From Lama guanicoe (Eukaryota), in the NCBI GenBank assembly GCA_013239625.1, contig MU053758.1:1178001-1242000 (forward strand): 64,000 bases of DNA. Direction: 5' to 3'. Under the pieces are notes generated by a model. That model was given only the letters and a program-made list of their open reading frames with translations, was not told where the DNA came from and did not search any database. This document shows positions 23,382 to 58,782 of this stretch, in pieces (position 1 is the first letter of the stretch; each line of letters opens with the position of its first letter). A program made the position numbers and the translations under genes.

Positions 23382-24512
23382 ATGCTAACCGCTGTCTGCG
23401 GCTCTCTGGGCAGCCAGCACACGGAAGCTCCCGCTGCCTCCCCACCGCGCCTCGACCTGCAGCCTCTCCAAACATACCAGGGCCACACGAGCCCGGAGGC
23501 CGGGGACTACCCCTCCCCGCTGCAGCCTGGAGAGCTGCAGAGCCTCCCGCTGGGCCCCGAGGTGGACTTCTCACAGGGCTATGAGCTGCCGGGGGCCTCC
23601 TCTCGGGTAACCTGCGAGGACCTGGAAAACGACAGTCCCTTGGCTCCGGGACCCTTTTCCAAGCTCCTGCAGCCGGACATGTCACACCACTACGAATCTT
23701 GGTTCCGGCCGACACACTCAGGCACCGAGGATGGCTCGTGGTGGGACCTTCATCCGGGTACCAGCTGGATGGACCTCCCCCACACTCAGGGCGCGCTCAC
23801 CTCACCTGGCCACCCCGGGGCGCTTCAAGCTGGCTTGGGGGGCTACGTCGGAGACCACCAGCTTTGTGCCCCGCCGCCCCACCCGCACCCTCACCACCTC
23901 CTCCCAGCCGCCGGAGGGCAGCACCTTCTGGCGCCTCCCGACGGGGCGAAGGCTTTGGAAGCGGCCGCCACGGAATCCCAGGGGCTAGATTCCAGTCTGG
24001 ATGGGGCGGCCCGGCCCAAAGGCTCCCGGAGGTCAGTGCCCCGCAGCTCAGGCCAGACCGTGTGCCGCTGCCCCAATTGCTTGGAGGCGGAGCGACTGGG
24101 GGCTCCGTGCGGGCCAGATGGGGGCAAGAAGAAGCATTTGCACAATTGCCATATCCCGGGCTGCGGGAAAGCCTACGCCAAGACGTCGCACCTGAAGGCT
24201 CACCTGCGCTGGCACAGCGGCGACCGTCCCTTCGTGTGCAACTGGCTCTTCTGCGGCAAGCGCTTCACGCGCTCCGACGAGCTGCAGCGCCACCTCCAGA
24301 CCCACACCGGCACCAAGAAGTTCCCCTGCGCCGTCTGCAGCCGGGTCTTCATGCGCAGCGACCACCTGGCCAAACACATGAAAACCCACGAGGGCGCCAA
24401 AGAGGAGGCTGCCGGGGCAGCGGCGGTGGGCGAGGGCAAGGCCGGCGGAGCGGAGCCCCCCGGGGGCAAAAGCAAGCGCGAGACAGAGAGCAGCGGGGCT
24501 CCCTCCAACTGA
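23382..24512 (+). CDS. SP6: Transcription factor Sp6 (epiprofin/KLF14-like Sp family), single coding exon, 376 aa
   Basis: [13 protein letters not shown]...; buttonhead box CRCPNC followed by three C2H2 fingers ([73 protein letters not shown]). Splice acceptor ccgtttag| at 23328, so the exon starts at 23329. Confidence 0.98.
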
Positions 24513-30880: not shown

Positions 30881-33996
<3,116 letters not shown>

Positions 33997-39715: not shown

Positions 39716-42700
39716 ATGGCTGCGACCGTGGCTGGGATGCTGCGAGGTGGTCTCCTGCCCCAGGCGGGTAAGGAGTGGCCCATATCTTCACGGCGCATTC
39801 CGGCCTGTGCTCTCTACTCGTCTCCCACCTCTACTACTGATCCCCTCCCGAGATCTCTGACCCCGGAAAGCTCCCGATAACCCCGACCCCAGCTAGATCA
39901 CCGGCCTCCTTTCCCCATCTAATTCCCTGGGACTCCAGAATCTAGTAATAATAGCAACACAGCGGAACCGTCAGCGACAACCACAGTATTTATTCTCTAG
40001 GCCGCAGTCCCTCTGCCTTGTTTGGGGTTTCTCTAACCCATCACCCAGCTCTTTCTGCCTCCAGAGATTCCTTTGGTTGGACCACGCCCCGCCTTGACCT
40101 CGGTGCTATGTTCCCTTCTTAAGGTCTCAGCCTAAATGGCATCTCAGGCCTTACTTGGCCACCTTCTGCAAAGCAGGTTTCCCCTATTAAGTCTGTGTCT
40201 CGCACTCTGTTTATTGACCCCTTTGCCTCATCACAATCTTGTAATTTTGCATTTGTTTACTTGTTTCCTCAATTAAACTCCATTAAGGCACAACCATGTT
40301 CATTCAGCATAGCCAGCAAGTGGCATGGTGCCTGACATGAGTAGGTATGCTGTAGATATGTGGGTTTTTGTTTTTGGTGGGGTTTTTTTTTGGAGTGAAA
40401 AGCCACATTAAGTTTATTTAATGAACTCTGGAAATTTCATGTTTCATATATATGTCACAGTTCCCCAATTACATTTTTTGTTCATATCTTTATTTATTTA
40501 AACTTTTTTTTATTGAGTTATAGTCATTTTACAATGTTGTGTCAAGTTCCAGTGTAGAGCACAATTTTTCAGTTATACATGAACATTCGTGTATTCATTG
40601 TCACATTTTTTTCGCTATAAGCTACCACAAGATCTTGTGTATATATTCCTGTGCTGTACAGTATTGTTTATCTGTTCTACATAAGACATGCTGTAGATAA
40701 GTGTTTAATGAATGATTTTGAATATGTAATATAGGCCAGACACAGTAACAGAGACATGTATTATTTCGTTTAAACCTTGAAAGCATTCTAAGAAGAGGGC
40801 ATTGTCTTCCCCTCCTTACAGGTGGAGAAATTCAAGTTTAGATCAGTTGAGTGACTGGTCAAGGTTATAGCTTGTGAGTGGCAGAAGAGAGATTAAAATC
40901 TGGATTCATGCATGTCAGTTATATCTCAATAAAACTAGAAAACACTTTGAAAAATGTGGTTCCATCCGATCTAAAGCTTTGTTCTTAAGAGTTAGGTTTT
41001 GTGGCCACTGGCAAAAAACCTCTCACCCCAACAAATCTCCATGGTCTCTGACCGAGAGAGCCACCTTCTGGCTGAACCTTTTCCTGAGATCCCATCCCAG
41101 TCTTGGGAAGGGCTGAAAGTGGGAAGCTCTAGTTTGGGTCCTTTTGTTGAGAATGAAGGGGTCACTTTGGCTTATGGCTTTCGAGTGGCTCCCTTGTCTT
41201 CTGAAAGGTGCTCTCCAGCAATGCCTGTAAACAAGAAGCATGGAGAGAGGGAGCTGTGAGGACAGTGTAACTTGTCCCTCTTCAAATCATGGGAGAAGGA
41301 GCAATGCCTAGAGTGGTGGTTCTCAGACTTTAGCTGGCATCGGCATCACCTGGAGGGCTTGTTTCACACTATTAAAAATTGACACAACATTGTAAACTGA
41401 CTATAACTCAATAAAATAAAATTTAAAAACACAAACAAACAAACAAACAAACACTATTAGTCGGCCTCCACTCATATTGGCTTGAGGGTGATGGTGGTAC
41501 ACACTTTGAAAACTACTGGTTCAAACCAGGGGTTGGCAAATTATGGCAGGGCTGGTCACCATCTTTGATACATACAGTTGTACTGGAACATAGCCACGTC
41601 TGTTTATTTACATATTGTCTGTGGCTGCTTCCATGATATGATGGCAGAGTTGAGTAGTAATGACAGACCATATGGCTCTTAAACTTAACATTTTTACTGT
41701 TTGGTCACTTAAGAAAAAGTTTGCTCAACTCTCTCCCTCCTTTTAAAAATGTATTCAAAATACTTTCTCCTTTGTTGTTCTCATTTTTCCCTCATCTCTG
41801 CATAAAAAAGTGCTGGAGAAATGGGAGCCTCCAAGGATCAAGCAACTGAGCTAAGGTTACCCATGAAAGAGAAGAGAAGATTGGGGAATTCAGGATTTCT
41901 AGCAGACAAATTCCTTGTCCCACTCAGTGCTGAGGCTAGCTCTGGGCTGTGGTTGTCTCTGCCCAGAGGATGGGAATTTTCCCTTTCCAGGGCACACTAA
42001 GGTCTCCAAGAGACTGCATCTCACCATATTGTCGTTTCTCCTCCCAGGCCGGCTGCCCACCCTCCAGACTGTCCGCTGTGGCTCCAAGGCCGTTACCCGC
42101 CACCATCGTGTGATGCACTTTGAACGGCAGAAGCTGATGGCTGTGACTGAATATATCCCCCCAAAACCTGCTGTCAACCCAAGATGCCTGCCACCCCCTC
42201 CCAGCCCCCCAAAGGAGGTAAGGAGGAGACTGGGCATGTCACCTAGTGGTGGGCTGGTGGATTAAAGTAAGCTTGTCCTTTGGCCATAATGAAGTAGCTC
42301 TCTAGGACATCGTCATCCACATGATTACTTTCCCACTTTGACTCTATAGTCCAGATACTTTAACATGAGATCTGCACCTGATTTTGCATTAGCCTTTTGA
42401 ACTCTGGATTGGATGGGCCTCCTGGATTTTCTTCATTCTTGTCTCCAAAAATGTATGTGTGAAAACTATCCCTTCAGGTAGGGGTAGGGAAGACCTTTGC
42501 TCCTGTCTTGAAGTTTCCATGTTTTCTTAGAGGAACAATACTAGGTTTTTTGTCCTTGAAAAAGAACAGAAAGACCAGTGGAGAAATGGTAACTTTATGG
42601 TGGTTCTCAGGTCCACAAGTTCTCAACTTCAGGAAATAGCATTGAAGTCTTATTCTGTGACATTGCCACAGTTTTGAATTAACACTGCAAAAGAATAATC

Positions 42701-44222
42701 TTGTATTTATGATTGGTAAAATAATTCAACATGAGTACAGTGTCAGAGGAATAATTAAAGTAATTTTGTGAACATTATTGTCAAAAAAACGTTCACTGGG
42801 TCAGACTTATGCCCTGTTCAGGGGCACTGAGTGTTCTCAGGTTTGAAAACCACTGCTCTAAAGACTGCTATTAGCTAATGGAAATGAAAGCACAGAGTGG
42901 GAGACAGAACATGTCTCTGAGAGTCAGGGGTCCAACTATCCTGCCTGTACATGGATCTAGCCCACATTTGGGCATCACTGGAAGCTCCAGCACCCACCCC
43001 TGAGGGAGCTGGATGCGAGGAGAAGAGGCAGCTTATATCCCCTTGATCATCCCTTCCTGACTTCAGGAGACGGGCCTTGTCCGGCTCCTCCGTCGGGAGA
43101 TAGCAGCAGTTTTCCAAGACAACCGAATGATAGCTGTCTGCCAGAATGTGGCTCTGAGTGCAGAGGACAAGCTTCTCATACGGCACCAGCTGCGGAAACA
43201 CAGGATCTTGATGAAGATCTTCCCCAACCAGGTAGGGAGCAGCCTACCTGGGTTGCCCGTATTTCCCTATCCCCGCCCACTCAGACACCAGCATCTCCAT
43301 AGATATCACACTCCTGACTCCTCCCCTCCACGGCAACCCTCTAGTCCGGTGCCTAAACTGCAGTTAAGGGCTGAGGAGACCCTTGGGTTGCGCTGTCAGC
43401 CTGTTGTGGCCCGTGACCAAGGTGGGCGGCTCTTCCTCCCATTTATCTCCAATAAGCCCTTCTTTCCTGCCATTCCAGATCCTGAAGCCCTTCCTGGAAG
43501 ATTCCAAGTACCAAAACCTGCTGCCCCTTTTTGTGGGGCACAACTTGCTGCTGGTCAGTGAGGAGCCCAAGGTTAAGGAGATGGTGCGAATCTTGAAGGG
43601 TGTGCCTCTCCTGCCACTGCTAGGTGAGCAGGCACCCCTGCCGGCTGGGGGTGAGGATGAAGACAAGTGGGCAGGAATCTGTGTTTACAATATCTTCCCC
43701 ACTAACACACGTATACTCCAGGATTCTTCAAGAGTTTAGGAAACAGTGACTTAGTGGGAGTTGGGCCAGACTTATTATGTAAGGGAAGGAGGGGAGGGGA
43801 TTGATCCCAAACAGTGGGAGTGGGGCGGGGCACAAGTGGGAATCAGATTTGGCAGAAGGCCGGGAGGTGGAGCATGGCAGTGGAGAGCAAATGCCTAGGG
43901 TTGAACCATTGTTTTCGGAGAAGAAAAGCATTTGTGGGACCCTAGCTGATGCCGTGTTCTTCCAGGTGGCTGCATTGATGACACCATCCTCAGCAGGCAG
44001 GGCTTCATCAACTACTCCAAGCTTCCCAGCCTGGCCGTGGCACAGGGGGAGCTGGTAGGAGGACTCACCCTCCTCGCGGCCCAGACCCACTCCCTGCTTC
44101 AGCACCAGCCCCTCCAGCTGACTGCCCTGCTGGATCAGTACATCAGACAGCAGCACAAGGGGGACTCCATCGGGCCAGCCAGTGAGCAGCCGGATCCTCC
44201 TGACCCAGTTCCAGACTCATAG
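39716..44222 (+). CDS. MRPL10: Mitochondrial ribosomal protein L10 (uL10m), 262 aa, 5 exons
   Basis: Exons 39716-39767, 42048-42217, 43067-43231, 43479-43623, 43966-44222; 789 nt, consistent phases. Presequence-like N-terminus [27 protein letters not shown], then [21 protein letters not shown]. Confidence 0.96.
40363..40687 (-). mobile_element. 5'-truncated LINE-1 with a candidate 3'-transduced segment
   Basis: L1 3'UTR at about 40505-40680, extra sequence 40392-40500, second tail 40365-40391. TSD ATGCTGTAGATA(T/A)GTG at 40347-40362 and 40688-40703. Confidence 0.75.
41311..41519. mobile_element. MER5A-like MITE interrupted by a tiny L1 tail (41375-41450, +)
   Basis: GTGGTTCTCAGACTTTAG...CATCACCTGGAGGGCTTGTT ... 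ACACTTTGAAAACTACTG. Insert AATTGACACAACATTGTAAACTGACTATAACTCAATAAAA plus (CAAA)n, flanked by TSD ACACTATTA at 41366-41374 and 41451-41459. Confidence 0.75.
41527..41732. mobile_element. MER58A-like hAT-Charlie MITE
   Basis: CAGGGGTTGGCAAATTATGG...TTTACATATTGTCTGTGGCTGCTT...GGCAGAGTTGAGTAGT...AAAAAGTTTGCTCAACTCT; degenerate terminal inverted repeats. Confidence 0.75.
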
Positions 44223-46539
44223 CCAGCCTCTTATACCCAGCCTACCCATAAATATACCCTGCCCCTATTGTCTGTGCAGTCTTCTGTCAGAGATGTGGGA
44301 GAACTTGGGGTGGGGAGTGGCATTTGTTACCTGGCTTTCATTGACAGTGACTTCTTGGCTACCCAGAGATGCAGAGGGAGTCCATTTCAGAATGGAGGCT
44401 CGTAATCACTATCTCTGTCCCTAGTCTGGGACCCGATAGGAGCAATCTTTCCGCTCTCCAAGTCCAAAGCAGAGAAGCTGAACAGAGGAGGATATTGCCC
44501 TCAGCCTCTATTGTCCATTGTCTCTTGCGGCACGTGCCTCCCAGCCTGTCCCTTCATGGCTCCAAAGTGCCAGCATAGCTCAACTGAGAAATTGTGCTGA
44601 GAATGGCATCTGCTCAGAGCCTACTGTGCCAGGCCCTGTGCTGACCACTTTACATGCACTAGTTCCTTTATTTCTTACATGTTATCCCCATTTCACAGAG
44701 AGGAAGACCAAGGGGAGGAGGAGTTAAATACCTTGCCCAAGGTCATGCTGTTAGTAGGGGGCAGCATGGGAATTGAACTAGCTCTCTGTGCTCTGAAGAC
44801 ACTGCCCTGGATTTCTACACTAGAACTTTCTCATTAGAGTCCCAGGCGTGCTTGGATGTTAATTCTCTGCCTTCAGGGTGTGCCGTGTTGTGGAAAGTTT
44901 GGGAGCCTTGCTTTATGATAAAATGAAAAGCATTTTACTTTACTGTGTTTTGCTGTTTACAAGCCTATCTTCCCTATAGACGTATTCTCAGGGTCATCTC
45001 TGACTCACTTCTCTTCCTAGAAAATCCTTCCTCTTCCCATGTCCAAGCCAGTTACTTCCCTGTGCCCATGCCCGCAAACGGCTTTTCTTACGTGCTTGTC
45101 CTTTTGAAGGCAGCTGCCCACTTTGCCCAGTAGCTAGCATGTCTCAGGTGGTTCTGAACAAAAGAGCTGAAGGAAAGCCAGGACTCTGTGTATTAATGGT
45201 CTGGTGGCTCTGGAGTAGGAGGCCTCGTCCACGTCACGGGGAACCGCAAGTGCCTAATGAAGGAGAGAGGACATTTGACAAGGAGCCTGCCCTTCTCCTT
45301 GATAGGCACGGTTCTGGGTGAACACTGCGGTGATGTGGGGAGGGTGGCTGTTGAGCATTCTCTAGGACCTGGAGCCGTGCCACAGCTCCCTTAGTCCCGG
45401 GCGGACACTGCCCTGGCAATGATGTTCTGCGGCAGCTTTTCCTTCCCTAGTCCAGGACCTATTTCCCACAGTGCTCAATCGATATGATGTGAATTAGAAA
45501 ACCCTTGAGGCTCCTGGATACCAGAGCTGGCCTGCCTGCCCAGTGCTTTCCAGTGCCCTCCCTGAGTCCCAGAAACCTGCCAGGTGGTGCTGACAACACC
45601 TCCCTAGGGTGACAGGAACAGTGCTGATGTTCCGAATGGAACAGTGAGCGGGCATCGCCTGAGAGATGTGTAAGACCCTGAAGGGTAAACCAAGGCTTCT
45701 GTGGGGACGGCTGGGTGGGGGAAATGGCTTATGTTATTTTGGGAATTAAAAGAAGAACCTTGCATTGCATCCTTCACCTTGTGGTACCTGAGGCCCCACT
45801 ATTAAAAACCCTTTCCAGAAAGCAGCTGCACTCCAGTTACAGCTGTCAGTCCATTTCATATTCATTTGAATGAATTCTACAGCTTTCTCAAAAGCTAGTT
45901 TCTAACTAGAACTGAGCAGCCAGACACAGTATTCCAGTGGAAGGGCAAAGGTACTCAGAAAGGGAGGCCATGGGTGCCGAAGTTGGCTCCACCTTGCCCT
46001 TTAAGAGCCAACTGGTTGTTGCTCCAAACCCAGTCCTGGTCCAGAGACTCTGCAGGCTCCAGGCTCTGGGGTAGGATTTGTCTTACCACATTGGTGCTTC
46101 CAGCACCCCTTTGGGTCCTGACCTGGTGGGGCATCACCCACAATGACGGTCTCAATGTGGGGGCCACTGGCTGGCCCTCTCGAGCCTTGACTGCCCTGCT
46201 GACTGTGCCCTTGGCACTGTCTTTCATGGTCCCACAGGGGCATCCCTCGCTTCCCGTCAACCTGATAGCTTTGCTGGCTCCAAATTTTGCAATCTATTTT
46301 CAGATGTAAAATGAGAGAGGCGGGGGGGTTAATAAGGAAATGGCCTTGAGTACTAACTGTGGTCAAGGCCGTGCTAGTCTGGGTAAACCCTTTACCACCA
46401 CTGGCTTGAGGCCAACAGCTCCCCAGTTCTCTGTGATCTATCTGGAACTGTGCCCAAGTGGGAACTCTGCCCCCAGCCCCAAGCCTCTGGGGTGTTGGGG
46501 AGTCGGCTCAGCCCTGAGTCCTCCAGGGAGCAGGGGGGC

Positions 46540-48102: not shown

Positions 48103-51100
48103 ATGGACTTCCAAGAGTGGGACCCTCCCTCCTTGGCAGAGAGCACTCAGTCTGCAAAGCCCAGCAGTGCCCAGCAGGTCTGAGAATGGGGAAGCAGGAG
48201 GGGCCAGCTCGGCTCACAGGGGAGGGAGAGATGTGGTCGCCTCACTGGTTGCTCCCCCACTCTGTCCTGGACTGCAGGCCTCCGAGCTGTGGGAGGTGGT
48301 GGAGGAGCCTCGGGGCCGGCTGGGGGCAGAGGGTATCATGCCGGAGAGGCAGGAAGGCCACCTGCTCAAGAAGAGGAAGTGGCCTCTGAAGGGCTGGCAC
48401 AAGGTAGGGCGGGCAGGGCAAAGGGAGGGGCCGGGTGCGGGGGCAGGACTGGGACCTGCGGGCAGTACAGGGTGTCTTTGTGTCAAGAAAAAAATGTCCA
48501 TGTGGTTGCTCTCTCCTCACACTCTTTCCTCTCGGTCTCCTGGGTCCCGTTCCTTCATGGCAACATCACAGAGATACTTTGTACTCGAGGATGGGATCCT
48601 TCGCTATGCCACGACTCGGCAAGATGTGAGTCAGGGCCTCGGCTGAAGGGGTGGGCGGGATCTGGCACCAGAGTGCCCTGGGCAGGCAGGGGGCTTCTGG
48701 AATCCTCCAGAGCAAGATTTGAATCCCAAGTACACCATTTGCTGGATATGGGGTCTTGGGCAGGTTACTTCCCTGGGCCTCACCTCTTCATCTCTAAGGT
48801 GGAAAGAGGGCGGTCACCCATTTGTAGTCTTCATCTTGGTGAGCACTGTCGGGACAGTGCCTGGCACAAATAAGTGCCCAAGAGATGAGGGCTTTATCAT
48901 TCTCATCCTTGTCCCGTGCTCATGAAGGAACACAGAACTAAAGGCCTAGACAACCAGGCTCTCTCCAAGAAAGTTTTTCCTTCCTCAGCCTTGCAGATTC
49001 CTGAGGATGGGAAAAGTTTTCCTCACTCCATGACTCCCTAAGAGCTCAGATTGTGACTTGACATAGTGGGCCATCCTGTGCCCAGGAGGATGGCTGACAT
49101 GTCCCTGCTGATACTGTGACTTGGGCATGAGGGTGAACTTGCTGCCTGGCCCATGAGCCTAGAGTGGTCTCAGGAAGATGGTGGCGCTGGTGGCCTAAAA
49201 GCAGTCTTCCTTAGCCCTCCAACCCCTCCACCCCAGATCACCAAGGGGAAGCTCCATGGCTCCATTGATGTCCGACTGTCGGTCATGTCCATCAACAAAA
49301 AGGCCCAGCGCATTGACCTTGACACTGAAGACAACATCTACCACCTGAAGGTGACATCCCTGGGAACCAGGTGGTGGTTTGGCCTCCAGCCTGGCAGAGA
49401 CACTGGGACACACAGGAGAGAGGCGCAGGGGCCAAGGGTCTGTCTGAGTTTGACCAAAAGGGCGTTCCCAACATATACAACAGCCAATGACGAACTGGCC
49501 CTGTTGGTTGGTATGGCACAGGGCCAAGGGCTCAGACACTTGGGGAAGCTGTTCCTGCCTCACAGCAAGGGGCTTTTGCACAGGCTGGGTGCTGTAAGGA
49601 GAGACCCTGCTTGCCTGGGGACCAGAACCTTGACTTCTTGCCCCTAGAAAGCAGTCCTTCCCTTCATGCGTCCCTCTCCTTCTCTGTCACTTCTGTAGAT
49701 CAAATCCCAGGACCTGTTCCAGAGCTGGGTGGCCCAGCTGCGTGCCCACCGCCTGGCCCAGCACGTGGACGTGCCCCGAGGCCTGCTGCCCAGCACCACT
49801 CACCGGAAGGTAATATGGGCCCTGAGGCAAGGGACAGGTGACGTGGGGATTCAGAATTTGGGAAGGCGGGTCCCATCCTTTCTGACCCTTGACTCACCCC
49901 ACAGGTTCCCGGTGCTCAGCCTCCAACAGCGGGTGGTGCCTCGGCTCTGCCAGGGGTTGGACCTCGGGAGAAGGTGTCTTCCTGGCTGAGGGACAGTGAT
50001 GGGCTAGACCGTTGCTCTCATGGTGAGGGGCCCCTGGCACCGTGACTCTGTGGGGAGGGCCCATGCTGTTGTGTCTGGGTGGCACCAGCAGTCACAAGGA
50101 GGAGAAAATGTTACCTCCATCCCTGCCTCAGGGAGCCCCCGTCTGATGGGGAGACAGCTTCTGCCTTTACACTGATCAGGTCTACACAGGCCTGCCCTGG
50201 GGAGCCTCAGGCTTACAGAGGATGACAGGGTTCATGCCGTAGGCACATGGACTGACCCAGACACAGGGCCAGGGCTCACATCCGGAATACCAACACAGGA
50301 GGGGTCCTGAGCAGTGGCTCCAGGGTGGGGAGTGTGCTCTGGGACCAGGTTCCTGGAGTTGAGCTGTGATGTTGTCCTGGGAGAGGGAAGTGCCAACCAA
50401 GTGGAAAGAGCAAAGTGAGGGCCCCCAGCCTGTGTGGAGGCAGCAGAGGTAAGGTGTGGTCTGGAGACAGAGAGCTGATGGGGCACCTACCTTCCTCTGA
50501 GGCCAGACCAGAGGGTAGGAGCTGCAAACCGCTTTAGGCTCGTGAGTAGGGGGTGTGGAAGCGGTGTCGGCACCTCCGTGGCTGTGGGGTGCAGTGCCTG
50601 GAAGACGAAAGGAAGCTGAGGGGCAGACTGGGGCACCCGGCCAGTGCAGGGAGAGGGACTTCCTCATTCATTCTTTCCGCAGAGCTCTCTGAGTGTCAGG
50701 GGAAGCTCCAGGAATTACACAGACTCCTCCAGAGCCTGGAGTCCCTGCACCGGATCCCTTCAGCTCCCGTTATCCCCACACACCAGGTGAGATCCAGGGA
50801 GGAGGCAGGGTCCTGCCTGGGGCGCTCTCTCCTCTTGCCACCTTCATCTCCATCGCTTCCCTGGACAGGTACCCTGTCCCCCTTACAAGCTGCAGTTTCC
50901 TGAGGAGCCACCGTCTCCTAGTTGCCCCTCCCCACCTTGTCCACAGTGCCTCAGGGTTGTCTCTCTGCCCCTTTGGAGCGACCCCTTCCTCTTGTGCCCA
51001 TGCACCTGCCAGGCTGTCGGTCCTTTGCCTCCGGGATGTCTGTGTCTCTGCGTCCTCCTCCATGGCCATCTGCCTCTCTCCTGGCTTTGGTGTTTTTCCT

Positions 51101-54100
51101 CACTCTGAGAGTGAAACTTCCCCACCTCGACTTGCCAGGCCTCAGTGACGACCGAGAGACCCAAGAAGGGGAAGCGGACCAGCCGCATGTGGTGCACTCA
51201 GAGCTTTGCCAAGGACGACACCATCGGACGGGTGAGGTGGGGTGTGGGCCCTAAGATGCTGGGGGGAGGCTCTGAAGAAGCCCCTTCAACCTCTCCCCTT
51301 CGTCTACAGGTGGGTCGTCTCCATGGCTCTGTTCCCAACCTATCTCGCTACTTGGAGTCCCGGGACCCCTCTGGCCCCCGCGGGCTGCCAACCCCAGACT
51401 ATGCCCACCTGCAGCGCAGTTTCTGGGCCCTGGCCCAGAAGGGTGAGTGCGTGCTGGAGGGGTGGCCGGGAGCAGATGGGGAGAAGGAGAGGGAGAGGGA
51501 GGGAGTCTGACAGCTGGCCCCTGCCCCAACAGTGCACAGCTCCCTCAGCAGCGTCCTGGCTGCTCTCACCGCTGAACGGGACCGACTGAAGGACCTGCAC
51601 CAGGGTTCAGAGTTGTCCAGGATGGGGGTGAGGCTGGGGACAGGATGGCCGATGGGAGGAGAGGGCCCAAAGCCAAGAACTGCAGGCCTGGAGGTGGGAG
51701 CAGACCTGGGCCGGGAAGGGGGTTGGCAGAGACAGGCCAGGGAGGGCTTCACCTCCCAGCACCTGTCCCCTCACTGTCTCCCTGCAGGTCTCTGAGGCCC
51801 CAGGTGGCCCAAAGCGCCTCCACTCACTGTCCGTCTCCTCCGACACCACTGCAGACTCCTTCAGCTCCCTCAACCCCGAGGAGGTGGGAGCCAGGGTGGG
51901 CTGTGGGCATCATTCCTCTGGGCCTTTTTTCTCAGCAGGAGTGAAAGCATGGTTGGTTTTCAGACCCAAAACTCCAACCCCTTTCCCAAAACATGGGCAG
52001 CAGCCGCATCTGTGATTCCTTAACTGCACGTAGAGTGCTTTTGCTTTTAAGTCAGAGTCCCGTGAGGCAGCGATTCTAACCCTCAAGTTTACAGACAGGG
52101 AAACTGAGATTCAAAGAATCTAATTGATGGGCCCAGGCTCCCCTACAGCATGGGTTTGAATTTGGCTCCACTGCAGGCTTGCTCTGTGACCCTGAGCCTC
52201 ATTGTCCTAAATCTGCAAAATGGGGGCAGGAATCATACCTACTTCACAGGATGAGTGTGGGGACTGACTGAGCTGGTATGCTCACAGGGCTTGGAGGGGC
52301 TCAGTGTCAGTGCCCAGGAAGCATGAGTGGTGATTATGGAACCCATGTCTCCTTACTCCCAGGCTGGTGATCACTCCCCTAGGCCTGAGTAGCCCACCAC
52401 ACTCGTTCTCCTCTGCATCTTCTCCCGCTCTGCAGGTTCAGACTAGACAATTAAAGTCCCCAGTCAGGCTTCCCTCTCAAGGGAACTGCCAGTTCAGGGG
52501 AGCCCAGCCTGTCACTCTGGCCGGGCCTCGGGCCTGACCCCTGTCTCGCTCCCACAGCAAGAAGCTCTGTACATGAAGGGGCGAGAGCTGACCCCTCAGC
52601 TGTCCCAGAGCAGTGTCCTGTCCCTTGCTGATTCCCACACAGAGTTCTTTGATGCCTGTGAGGTTCTCCTGTCTGCCAGCTCTTCTGAGAATGAGGTGAG
52701 GGAAGAGGGACCCTGGGAATAGAGGAGTAGGGTTCAGGGAGACTAGAATCTATAGATTCCCAAGTCCTTTCCAAGCACCTCAGCCGCTGTCTCTGCATGT
52801 CCAAACATGCTGGGTTTGTGCAGCCGTGCTCAGAAACCTGCTGGGGACCCTTCTTCCAGTTTGATGTGCTCTGTCTCCATTGGATCCTCCTGAAACTTCT
52901 TCCTCAGCTCCACCCCCAGTCATCTCCCTGTGACCCCATTTTAGCTGCAGTGCTCTCTCAGTAATCCCCAACTTCCCTTCCCTTCCTTTTGTGTGCTGTC
53001 AAGTCCCTGAGCTGTCTTGCACCAGTTGTGAGGCCAGGCCCTCTCCCAAGGTGGCAGGGCACGTCATGATGCTAGGCCTCCCAGGGCAGTGCCTTAGGGC
53101 TCAGCCCACTCCCAGTACATTCTCTTCCCCTTCCCACCAAAGGGCTAGCTGGGCAGATTCTTGCCAGGCTCTGGGCACTGCCCAGTCTGCCTGGCCTATC
53201 ATCTGTCCTGGCACAGGGCTCGGAGGAGGAGGAGTCGTGCACCAGTGAAGTCACCACCAGCCTGTCTGAGGAGGTGCTGGACCTCAGGGGAGCCGAGCGC
53301 TGTCAGAAAGGTGCCAGCCAGGCGGGCAGGAGGGAGGGCTAGAGGTGGGCACAGAAACAGAGTTTGTCCACAGTCCAGGCCCCTTGAGAAGCAGTCCCTT
53401 GTAGTGCTGGTGGGCTAATGGCTTTGGATACTGACTCCAGGGGTGACTCCGGGCTGCGAGGAAGGCTAAGCCGTGAGCTATGTCGCAGGGGTGGCTCTGG
53501 GGTGGGACAGGCTCAGCTGAGGGCTGGCCTCCCCTCCAGTCTCCTGAGAAGGCTCCCATGTGGGCCTGACAGAAACACAGAAGGGCCCACTCAGCCACTT
53601 TTTAGCAGCGTGGCTTTAGACGTGTCATTTTGCTTCTTGGAGCCTATTTCCTTGTCTATAAAATGGGCCGAGTAATCCTGACATTGGTTTCTGTTTATGA
53701 AAGGGAGCAGAAGCCAAGGGTGGGGGCTCAGGAAGGGCTTCTGGGGTGCAGGGTTTCTGTTTCCAGCAGTGGGAACTGCCCTGTCAGGTTCTTAGCCCTG
53801 CTGCCCACCTAAATCCCCAGGAGCTCACCAAGAATTAGCTCTGCAGCCGCCTGCCCCACAGTGAGTCCATGCTGGGGCCTGGGAGTGACCATACCCAGGA
53901 GCACCTCAGGAGCTCTGGAGGTGCCTGGATGCCGGTGCCCAGCGGAAAGTGACAGGCAGGGCAACACCCTGGGGCTGTGTTCCAGGGGGAGCTGTGGGGC
54001 CTCCCCGCCGCCGATGTCTGCCGGCGGCCAGTGGGCCCGGGGCCGACGTGAGCCTGTGGAACATCCTGCGGAACAACATCGGCAAGGACCTGTCGAAGGT

Positions 54101-57100
54101 ATCGATGCCTGTGCAGCTCAATGAGCCACTCAACACCCTGCAGCGGCTCTGCGAGGAACTGGAGTACAGCAGCCTCCTGGACCAGGCCAGCCGCACCACC
54201 GACCCCTGCGAGCGCATGGTACGCCCGCCGCCCCAGCCCAGCCCCAGGCTGCCTCGTCCTCCCAGGATCCCGTCTCCCAGAACACCCTGGTGGGCCCTTC
54301 CCTGCTGCTGAAGGTTCACCCCAGCCCCCCAGCCCTTGCTGGTGGTGGGGTGGCATCTCCTCTGATCCCCCGGCGCCCCTCGTCCCCAGGTGTACATTGC
54401 AGCCTTTGCTGTCTCCGCCTACTCCTCCACCTACCACCGGGCGGGCTGCAAGCCCTTCAACCCTGTCCTGGGGGAGACCTATGAGTGCGAGCGGCCTGAC
54501 CGAGGCTTCCGCTTCATCAGTGAGCAGGTATGGGCCCGGAAGAGGCTGGGGGCGGGGGTGGAGGAGGGAAGAGGTAGCCAGGTGGCCAAGAGCAGGAAAC
54601 ACAGGGCCTCCATGGAGGGAGCAGCTGGCAGTCGGGTAGTTGGGGGAAGGGGCTCCCCGCTTAGTGTGAAACAAGGAGTTACTGCACCATGTTCTAGAGC
54701 TGGGATCATGGAAGCTCATAGGATGTTATTCAGCTCTAGTGGGTGATCCTGAGCTAAGTCTTGAAGGATGAATTGGAGTTTGCTAGTTGCCCAAGGGGGT
54801 GGGGAGAATGGGATGTTGCAGACAATGTAAAGGAACAAATGGAGCATATTTAGGAAGAGTTAGAGACAAGGCTGGAAGATAAGGCAGAGCCAAACCCTGA
54901 GGAGCCCTGTAGGTGAAGGTTAGAAAGGGTTGGTTGGTTGGTTGGTTTTTAAGTTCTGAAGGCAATGGGGAGCCATGGGAGGGTTTTAAGTGGTAGAGTG
55001 ACATGCTTAGGATTGAACTTGATAAGAACATTCAAGCAGTGGTGTGCACCAGGGAATGGGAGGAGGCAGGAAGATAGGCCGTGGGATCCCCAAGTTCAAG
55101 GTTCTATATGGGGACTTGTTCCAAGGAGGACAAGGCTGAGTTTTTCTAAGGGTGTGTTGTGGAGGTTGCGAGTTGATAATCAACTTTGGGGGAGAAGATG
55201 ATGAAGGAAGAGGATCCCCACAGGAGGGCTGGCTTTCAGGCAGGGCACAGGTAGAGGTCCCACCTGTCACTGCTAGGGGACTTTGTAGGCTTGGGCAGGG
55301 TCTCTGGAGGGCACTGTACACAAGGTTGGCAAGGAGGGCCCAGAGGGGAGTGAGTGAGAAGGAAGAATGTAGGGGCCTCAGGGGAAAGGAGAGGATGATG
55401 GAATTTGGATGGTGGCCAAGGGTGAAAGGGACAAGAGACCTGGAACTAACTGGTCTTCTGGTCCACAGGGAAACTGGGGGAGGGGTGAGGGCCTTGGGGG
55501 GGTCTGGGGTCAGGTGCATCCTGAAGAGAACTTCCTTACTCATCAAGGTCTCCCACCACCCCCCCATCTCGGCGTGCCATGCAGAGTCTGAGAACTTCAT
55601 CTTCTGGCAAGGTGAGGGGGGCTGGGTGTGAAGGGAAGATGGGGGAGGGGCTGGAACACTTTCTGGTCTTATCTCTGCTGTTCATCTCCCTCCCCCAACC
55701 CAACTCCAGACATGAAGTGGAAGAACAAGTTCTGGGGCAAATCCCTGGAGATTGTGCCTGTGGGGACAGTCAACGTGAGCCTGCCCAGGTGAGTGTTCCT
55801 GAATGCTCCGCAGCCAGGCCCAGGCCACAGGCCATCCTCCAGGCTGGGACCAGGAGGTGGCAGGGACTGGAGAGAGGCCTGAAGCTGCTTAGGGTGGGGC
55901 AGGTTCTGTACATTTTACACCTATGTTCACAGCAGTTGCCAATAAAGAAAGGTGAAAAATCTTCCAGCTGGAAGGGCTTGTGAAGGTCATCTGACCGAGT
56001 AGTTTTCACACTTTCTGACCGTGACTCACAGTAAGGAATGCATTTGAGACTTCAAGCCAGTGCACAGTAACTCATAGACACACACGCACACACACACATG
56101 TACACAGAAACCTAAAGTGATTTCAGGACTGCTCACAAACCACATTTGAAACACGCTCATCTAACTCATTTTACTGGGGGCACTGCAGCCAGAGGCCGGT
56201 GCAGGGGTTGGGGAGGCCCTGGACTTCGGGGTCAGAAGTCCTCGGTAGGAGTCTCAGTTCTAGCACTGAATAGTTACGCAAGCAGCAAGAAGACTTGACA
56301 TCTCAGAGCCTCGAGTCCACTTGTCTATAAAATAAGAGTAATAAGTAATGCCTGACAGAAGTGCGGAGTAAACAGAGTGATATATGTGAACAGACCGACC
56401 ATGGTCCCTGGCACCCAAGGCCAGGGACCCAGTCTACGGTTTTACCCCCATGACTTAGGCACTCAAGGGCTTTCTCAACAAATGGAGATGTGTCGGCTGA
56501 ATACTTTCTGTGAAGGCTGCTCTGCTTTATAAATATGTCATTCTTCATGGAAGGACGATGAGCTGGAACCAGGGCCCCAGGTTTCCTTCTGCAGACCCAT
56601 GTGTGTGAACTGCTCCAATGAGACAGGTGCTCCCTGGCTCAGGGTGGCGCATAGTTCCCCAGGGCTGGCCAGCTGCCCTCCCCAACGCTCTGTCTCTCTC
56701 AGGTTTGGGGACCACTTTGAGTGGAACAAGGTGACGTCCTGCATTCACAACATCCTGAGTGGCCAGCGCTGGATTGAGCACTACGGGGAGGTGCTCATCC
56801 GGAACACACAGGACAGCTCCTGCCACTGCAAGATCACCTTCTGCAAGGTGGGCACACCACCCTGCCCCTGCCTGTCTGTCCCCAGCAGCTCGCCCCAGGC
56901 AAGGGGAGGGGACACCTCCCCCAGCCCCCTGCCCCCCCCCCCCCCCCCCGCCCACAGGGTGCTGTGTTGAGCCGAAGTGGCCGCGTCCTCCACCGACTCT
57001 TCGGGAAGTGGCATGAGGGGCTGTACCGAGGGCCCCCGCCGGGTGGGCAGTGCATCTGGAAACCCAGTAAGTGGGGCAGCCGGGGTGGACTGGGCGGGGT

Positions 57101-57886
57101 AAGGGCTGCTGTGGCACAGTCCACCTGCCCCAGCCCCCTGCCTTCCCCCCAGACTCAATGCCCCCAAACCATGAGCGAAACTTCGGCTTCACTCAGTTTG
57201 CCTTGGAGCTGAATGAGCTGACGGCTGAGCTGAAACGGTCTCTGCCTTCCACTGACACGCGGCTCCGGCCAGACCAGAGGTCAGTGCCAGGCAGTTGCTG
57301 CTCTAGAACCCGGAGCTCCTCCCTCCTCTGTGGGTTCCACACAGACCTGGGACTGTGTCCTTCCTTCCTTGAGTCTCCACAGGGGGAGATGGGGCCTGTT
57401 TGGGGCAGAACTGGGCAGGACAGAGGCCTTGAATGTGGGGGCTCTTGAGGGTAGAGGCAGTTCTGCTGACTGCAGCCTGGATGCTCAGGTACCTGGAGGA
57501 GGGGAACATACAGGCTGCCGAGGCCCAGAAGAGAAGGATCGAGCAGCTTCAGCGAGATAGGCGCAAAGTGATGGAAGAGAACAACATTGTCCACCATGCT
57601 CGCTTCTTCAGGTGCCTCTGCCCTCTGCCCTGGGTCTCTCTGCGACCCAGGCTCCCCTCCTCTTCCCTGTAGCCCCTTCCTGCTTTGAGTGGGGCCAGCA
57701 GTGGGAGGCAGCATCTGGGGACAGCGGCCTTATTTCTGGATGTTCACCTCTTGTCTTCCCTTTCCCCGTCCCCCCAGGCGGCAGACAGACAGCAGCGGGA
57801 AGGAGTGGTGGGTGACCAACAACACGTACTGGCGGCTGCGGGCTGAGCCAGGCTATGGGAACCTGGATGGGGCTGTGCTCTGGTAG
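48103..57886 (+). CDS. OSBPL7: Oxysterol-binding protein-related protein 7 (ORP7): PH domain, FFAT motif, ORD; about 825-835 aa as it stands
   Basis: Exons 48103-48177, 48278-48403, 48572-48625, 49237-49350, 49699-49809, 49905-50022, 50683-50786, 51139-51231, 51310-51442, 51533-51627, 51788-51883, 52558-52695, 53217-53310, (53956 or 53986)-54218, 54390-54527, 55548-55611, 55710-55788, 56703-56847, 56958-57066, 57153-57279, 57489-57611, 57778-57886. PH domain ([21 protein letters not shown]); [11 protein letters not shown] at 52642-52662; OSBP fingerprint EQ|VSHHPP. Two exon 5' ends are anomalous (see findings). Confidence 0.95.
54700..55030 (-). mobile_element. LINE-2 fragment in an OSBPL7 intron
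   Basis: GAGCTAAGTCTTGAAGGATGAATTGGAGTTTGC...GGCAATGGGGAGCCATGGGAGGGTTTTAAG. Confidence 0.6.
56932..56949. repeat. Poly-C (18 nt) in the polypyrimidine tract before OSBPL7 exon 20
   Basis: Homopolymer run. Confidence 0.95.
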
Positions 57887-58782
57887 CCCTGGCCCAGGGG
57901 GCAGGAGGCCCCAGTTCCTCCCTCCTGCCTCCACCCCCCGCCACGGACACTTGGGCGAGGCCAGGCTCTCCCACTCACTGCCCTGGAGACCAAAGGGGCA
58001 GCCCTGGCTCTGGCCCTCTCCCCTCTGCTGGCCAGAGGGGCTGCATCTCAGCCCACTGTCCACCCCTGGTCTAGGGTGAGAAGCGGGATTCGTGCTTCCC
58101 CAGTCTCGTTGCCCCAGACAACCGGCATGTAAGACCCTCCTTGCTTTGTCATCCCCCGTCTTTCCCCCTTGGGGTACTTGGGGGAGACTCCAGACCCTCC
58201 AGGATCTGTTCCCCATTTCAGTGCCTTCCTAGGACACAGGGGATCCCTTGATACTCCCCAGGCTTCCTGTGCCCAGGACTCTGGCCCCAGCATTGAGGTT
58301 AGAGTGACTGAAGGAGAGGGGACGGCCTTTTCTTCCAGCCCCATCCCTCCCATTCCCCATCTCCAGCATCTTCTCCCCACACCCTGGGCCAGGGGGCTCC
58401 CTTTGCTTGGCCCTGGCAATTTCTCTCATCCTCCTGGATCCCCTTCTCCCAAACTGCAAAATGCCTGCAGCTTCCAGCTCCTTTATCCTTGGACCTCAAG
58501 TGGTTTCCTTCAGTCTCAGCTCGGCGGATCCCCTCAGAGCAGACTGGGCAGGAAGGGCGCCTGGCCTCAGACCCACCGGGAGTGAGTGAGGACCCGTGAG
58601 AGTGTCAGTTTGTGTCGGAGAGCGTGTGTGCGTGTGCGTGCGCGTGTCTGTGTACTGCTTGCAGGCGAGCAGGATTCCTCTTGTAGCCTGGACGTCCCCG
58701 CTGCCGGGTGTCCGCCCCCGTTGCTGCTCATTTTCTCAGTCTGCCTCTGATTAAGGTGAATGGCTATGACATTCCAAGCTCC

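Follow-up and report, generated by a model that had tools for sequence, protein, structure and literature searches.

The closest relative of ORP7 with a solved structure is ORP3, which is described as a binder of PI(4)P that does not take up sterol (PMC8049286). The human ORP3 ORD (7DEI, 7DEJ, 7CYZ) has 70% identity to that of ORP7 and shares with it a segment of 12 residues, located at 227–238 in the chain numbering of 7DEI and falling inside the ORD barrel region described for ORP3 (PMC8049286). A homologous segment in ORP3 was also named in the original prediction. The PI(4)P-contact residues reported for ORP3 (PMC8049286) lie outside this segment, as do V616, V618, K636 and I641, which have been reported as pocket residues of ORP7 (PMC8329197). 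In Osh6, T262 is placed in the beta14–beta15 loop, which contacts membranes and which has been called critical for the anchoring of Osh4 (PMC6718676). Knock-down of ORP7 itself raised cholesterol efflux by approximately 50% in THP1 cells (PMC8329197). With the cargo of ORP7 given as unresolved (PMC11656939) and with ORP3 binding PI(4)P, the label "sterol-binding", under which this domain was originally described, is not established.

The OSBPL7 gene analyzed here lies on the plus strand of a 64-kb stretch of Lama guanicoe DNA (the window, to which all positions refer). Its coding span (48103..57886) is made up of 22 coding exons with a total of 2478 nt, encoding 825 aa plus a stop. Exon numbers follow the scheme of the original prediction, which presupposes what we take to be a single non-coding first exon upstream of the coding exons. 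All introns have AG/GT borders, and neither frameshifts nor internal stops occur in the spliced 22-exon model. It was possible to identify the gene as the OSBPL7 orthologue by its best identity to annotated ORP7, its retained exon layout and the adjoining MRPL10, and its product contains the PH-domain region, an EFFDA (FFAT-type) motif, KPFNP and EQVSHHPP. Comparison with four dromedary models (KAB1265208-11) gave identities of 99.4–99.5% with 4–5 differences, none of them beyond residue 458; across residues 459–825 there are no differences outside of a gap of 12 residues. The alignment to pig ORP7 (UniRef100_A0A480MKY1, 837 aa, 97.7% identity) also has one gap only, of 12 residues after residue 670. 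A pseudogene was ruled out on the basis that OSBPL7 has no stops, frameshifts, lost splice sites or relaxed constraint.

The 12 absent residues are AKYWSSNVHEVQ, corresponding to residues 671–682 of pig and 676–687 of human ORP7. Exon 19 (56703..56847, plus strand) ends with KITFCK at 56847 and a phase-0 gt donor, intron 19 (56848..56957, plus strand; 110 nt) ends with the acceptor cccacag at 56957, and the shortened exon 20 (56958..57066, plus strand) opens with GAV and has 109 nt where 145 nt are expected. Both borders are as originally predicted, and the single gap in the pig alignment bears out the claim that exon 20 has undergone a clean loss of 36 nt comprising 12 conserved codons. The finding that these codons are missing from 56848–56957 could also be extended to six frames of the whole window, in which the 12-mer is absent; the best match agrees in 6 of 12 residues and lies far away on the opposite strand. 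With these residues absent, the ORD barrel of this protein is incomplete at the loop and strand following KITFCK.

The peptide is not generally lacking from orthologues, a possibility that had been raised at the outset. All 227 ORP7-type proteins with both flanks carry the 12-mer, that of the dromedary among them; these were drawn from 470 proteins, the remainder of which were fragments or members of other families, and many of the ORP7-type rows are isoforms of one species and thus not independent. An earlier set of 288 proteins included 212 with both flanks, and the peptide is carried by all 212, either as a spacer of exactly 12 residues (204 proteins) or at the end of an intron read-through (8 proteins). 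Across the 204 spliced proteins, six of the 12 spacer columns are invariant (K, Y, W, E, V and Q). As for distant ORDs, 145 of 150 representatives cover both anchors and none of the 145 is 12 residues shorter; five are 5–10 residues shorter between the anchors, and at least three of these appear to reflect poor alignment or errors in the gene model. The absence of 12 otherwise strictly conserved codons from this OSBPL7 sequence is confirmed.

A second difference in length concerns exon 15, the acceptor of which (53984..53986, plus strand) gives an exon that is 5 residues shorter. At 53966–53986 the ancestral acceptor has apparently been lost (ccctgg in place of AG), with a CAG 15 nt downstream being used. 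The short form is common to pig, hippo, goat, yak, deer, blue whale and dromedary, and the long form is found in horse, bat, baboon, mouse, manatee and Tasmanian devil. As all the cetartiodactyls checked have the short exon, an intact camelid ORP7 is expected to be 837 aa in length and exon 15 is no anomaly. The original prediction had restored this exon along with the deletion to reach the human length; its arithmetic stands (2478 + 36 + 15 = 2529 nt, or 842 aa plus a stop), but the restoration of exon 15 is needless.

Intron 19 was compared with those of 12 mammalian ORFs that read through it, where its length ranges from 73 to 154 nt and is mostly 87–108 nt (a set that leaves aside four further ORFs ending inside the intron), and it is collinear with those introns as far as the acceptor. 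Being of normal length, it has not absorbed an extra 36 nt, which means that the 12 codons were deleted and not converted to intron. At the join stands CAGG (56955..56958, plus strand), in which the acceptor CAG/G coincides with the CAG G that belonged to the lost Gln-Gly codons, with 36 nt missing. The final codons of the lost segment read GTG CAG G in the +1-frame ORFs P0006, P0009 and P0110 (two-frame reading); going by these three mammalian ORFs, the lost 36 nt would have sat between two CAGG copies, the right-hand copy being deduced from other mammals and not from camelid DNA. A short homology at both ends of which one copy is kept, the pattern of a microhomology-mediated deletion, is what CAGG represents here, and the proposal that a CAGG microhomology left frame and acceptor intact is supported to this extent. 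Among the 3350 possible 36-nt deletions in 54401–57900 (the 3' part of OSBPL7), 3.1% have a microhomology of at least 4 nt.

Eight nucleotides from the join, in the polypyrimidine tract, there is an 18-nt C run (56932..56949 on the plus strand; a G run on the minus strand), and of all 25-mers in the 64-kb window, one containing this run has the most extreme G4Hunter-type score (−3.64). A C-rich tract belongs to this acceptor in orthologues as well. G/C runs of at least 15 nt occur only twice in the window, their 10-nt surroundings amounting to 0.12% of it; the second is a C run of 21 nt at 31713–31733, on the same strand and in the same CCTG-(C)n context. No hairpin that would explain the join was detected (z = 0.60). 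Upstream of the run, an in-frame AG (56923..56924, plus strand) is a candidate acceptor, the use of which would insert 11 proline-rich codons at the site of the 12 lost ones. Three more in-frame AGs in intron 19 are too near to the donor and are unlikely acceptors.

The position of the lost segment in the fold was read from an AlphaFold2 model (m785e11fe8642) of an intact ORP7 ORD (P0007), built on a 111-row alignment with a pLDDT of 95.5 and a pTM of 0.93, which has a TM-score of 0.95 against ORP3 7DEI. In this model of an intact orthologue, strands are formed by residues 191–197 and 209–216, and the missing residues are 200–211, comprising the loop 200–208 and the strand residues 209–211. 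Most of the 111 ORDs have an aromatic pair (Y/W/F) in the loop that is lost here, and columns 209–212 have 0% gaps across the 111 rows. When residues are counted backwards from the point where the Osh6 match ends, the loop would fall near Osh6 T262, a placement which is approximate. Since the pocket residues are located outside of the gap, the lining of the pocket is not directly removed. As judged from the intact model, the hairpin would have to re-register, and the shortened ORD is therefore probably less stable or weaker in membrane docking.

Short deletions flanked by microhomology, whether arising by slippage or by polymerase-theta end joining (PMC12426944), are described as likewise short and with microhomology at the join. 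The OSBPL7 deletion differs from these in having no templated insertion, and its 4 nt of homology cannot separate an event in vivo from an assembly join. The G4-induced deletions of C. elegans dog-1 are reported to start at the first G, to remove the motif and to span 50–300 bp (PMC4654259). The deletion in the window resembles these in adjoining a long G run, but a classical G4-induced deletion was rejected as the run has been kept and the 36 nt were lost 8 nt beyond it. An RNA-templated origin was also dropped, as intron 19 is still present. Whether a rare allele or an error, the two leading cases, the event is one of a known kind.

We give about an even chance to the deletion being a real allele, rare or private, of the haplotype that was assembled. 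The original options did not include the sequenced animal carrying a rare or heterozygous allele, which is considered slightly likelier than the mis-assembly that they did include. These weights, including the very small share left to explanations other than a rare allele, an error and a fixed or common change, are a matter of judgement and were not computed. Under such an origin, replication slippage or microhomology-mediated end joining would have united the two CAGG copies 36 nt apart, one at the acceptor CAG/G and one in the Gln-Gly codons, and the neighboring C/G run may have favored this. As the left-hand copy is the acceptor itself, which is seen to be retained, splicing should still work with the frame kept. 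The product would be an 825-aa ORP7 without human residues 676–687, having lost a surface loop with aromatic residues together with the three residues that begin the following barrel strand, and the allele could be carried in a single copy without being a trait of the species.

A number of observations point to a rare allele. The join has 4 nt of microhomology, a level reached by few of the possible 36-nt deletions. The length of 36 nt is an exact multiple of three and the acceptor is preserved, and a random consensus slip would not favor the keeping of both. The breakpoint is 8 nt outside the C run and not within it. The surrounding consensus appears accurate, with no N in 64 kb, no frameshift in the 22 OSBPL7 exons, unbroken MRPL10 exons and an SP6 in exact agreement with an annotated record. 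Living human carriers of an ORP7 frameshift variant have also been reported (cited in PMC11656939). Counted against a rare allele are that the haplotype of the whole window did not turn up among the 14 DNA-type runs described below, that the neighborhood of the C run is where sequencing errors cluster and that the shape of the deletion is unlike that of a classical G4-induced one. If the allele is real and rare, it is a candidate for loss of function and would be worth genotyping in herds, since OSBPL7 has been linked to cholesterol efflux through ABCA1.

The strongest competitor, a serious one which we hold to be somewhat short of an even chance, is the mis-assembly raised in the original prediction. 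In this case coverage or base-calling would have failed at the poly-C/G4 tract, with the consensus or gap closing joining the two CAGG copies, and the ORP7 of the animal would be a normal one of 837 aa. The closeness of the join to the 25-mer with the most extreme G4-type score in the window argues for it, and so does the retention of the 12-mer in every one of the orthologue rows. Deletion errors at G4 motifs have been reported to be increased approximately 3-fold for Illumina, 2.1-fold for HiFi and 1.5–1.6-fold for ONT, with homopolymers given as the main error predictor for HiFi (PMC10519405). However, these are per-read rates and do not address clean consensus losses of 36 nt. A generic consensus slip would also have to keep frame, acceptor and microhomology by coincidence, which an overlap join would not.

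Further evidence was sought in an index of sequencing runs, where 14 DNA-type holders contain 0.93–0.96 of 176 window words (small-share rows X20 and X22–X24 being left out of the reading). In favor of an error, five runs from four studies, with four organism codes, share a common ceiling of 0.96, with approximately 7 words missing, and words touching the C tract or the join would explain approximately 6.1 of these. The shortfall is equally explained, however, by dropout of the C tract together with one SNP. The number of words expected to be missing is approximately 2.7 for the join specifically, 3.2 for the long C run, 4.6 for both and 6.4 for the tract with one SNP, and the probability of 6–8 missing words is 0.45 for the tract with one SNP, 0.28 for the tract with the join and 0.085 for the tract alone. 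The ceiling of 0.96 thus fits a join absent from the listed runs and fits tract dropout with a SNP just as well. None of the 14 DNA holders exceeds 0.96 of the 176 words, and the whole-window haplotype was not found among them. RNA-labeled runs (X15–X19) have word shares of 0.28–0.39, close to the exonic expectation of 0.285, and are insensitive to the join. If the deletion is an error, its meaning is limited to one correction to a reference gene model.

That the change is fixed or common in one or all South American camelids, or in a single population of them, is considered highly improbable. Here a functional ORP7 without the loop would be under purifying selection, perhaps patched by the 11 proline-rich residues gained from the upstream AG. 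The ORD is otherwise unchanged, as would be expected of a protein that still works, and the five distant ORDs with a shortening of 5–10 residues at the same anchors (at least three of them doubtful) also count in its favor. Protein searches and cluster look-ups retrieved no South American camelid ORP7, with only 15 of up to 365 members of the large clusters among those listed. Against this, the dromedary retains the segment, no ORD representative is 12 residues shorter and the strand columns are free of gaps. If the deletion were confined to a single species, the runs of that species should also contain approximately 2.7 more words than those of the others, but organism codes A–D all peak at 0.96. 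The lineage-specific change originally suggested is not supported, the dromedary having the segment, the rest of the ORD being identical to that of the dromedary and no organism code standing out. Were the deletion to prove common, and in that case alone, it would deserve wider attention, both as a naturally occurring ORD that lacks the loop by which it probably contacts membranes and as a natural experiment on membrane docking by an OSBP-related domain.

Scarcely credible is that there was no deletion, the acceptor having moved downstream with the 36 nt decayed to intron or the codons lying in a micro-exon elsewhere, for although the Gln-Gly codons offer a usable CAG/G and exon 15 of the same gene did shift its acceptor, this is refuted for the present sequence by an intron 19 that is inside the orthologous length range and collinear to the acceptor and by a peptide untraceable in any frame.

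No published report of an OSBPL7 deletion in camelids was found by a literature search that took in few subscription papers and had supplements with variant tables outside its scope, and the parts available of two camelid assembly papers (PMC6598621, PMC7331169) contain nothing bearing on the OSBPL7 locus. A 25-nt exon-20 pattern had 0 matches in metagenome contigs, which is uninformative for a mammal, and three ORFs crossing the join had no exact look-up match, with all four control ORFs of the same gene being likewise absent, so that the missing matches carry no weight.

With regard to the rest of the window, SP6 is present as an intact single-exon frame (23382–24509, 376 aa) identical to an annotated NCBI/UniRef record; the contig of that record is 63.3 Mb long, suggesting a chromosome-scale assembly. 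The exons of MRPL10 (39716–44224) match a squirrel orthologue without breaks, OSBPL7 being downstream of MRPL10. The acceptor of OSBPL7 exon 17 (55545–55548) is a weak AAG, and all four dromedary gene models run this exon upstream into the intron. The sole ORP7 differences from dromedary are Trp6, I45, V146, T156 and R458, the first of which (48103–48120) is Arg in dromedary, pig and whales.
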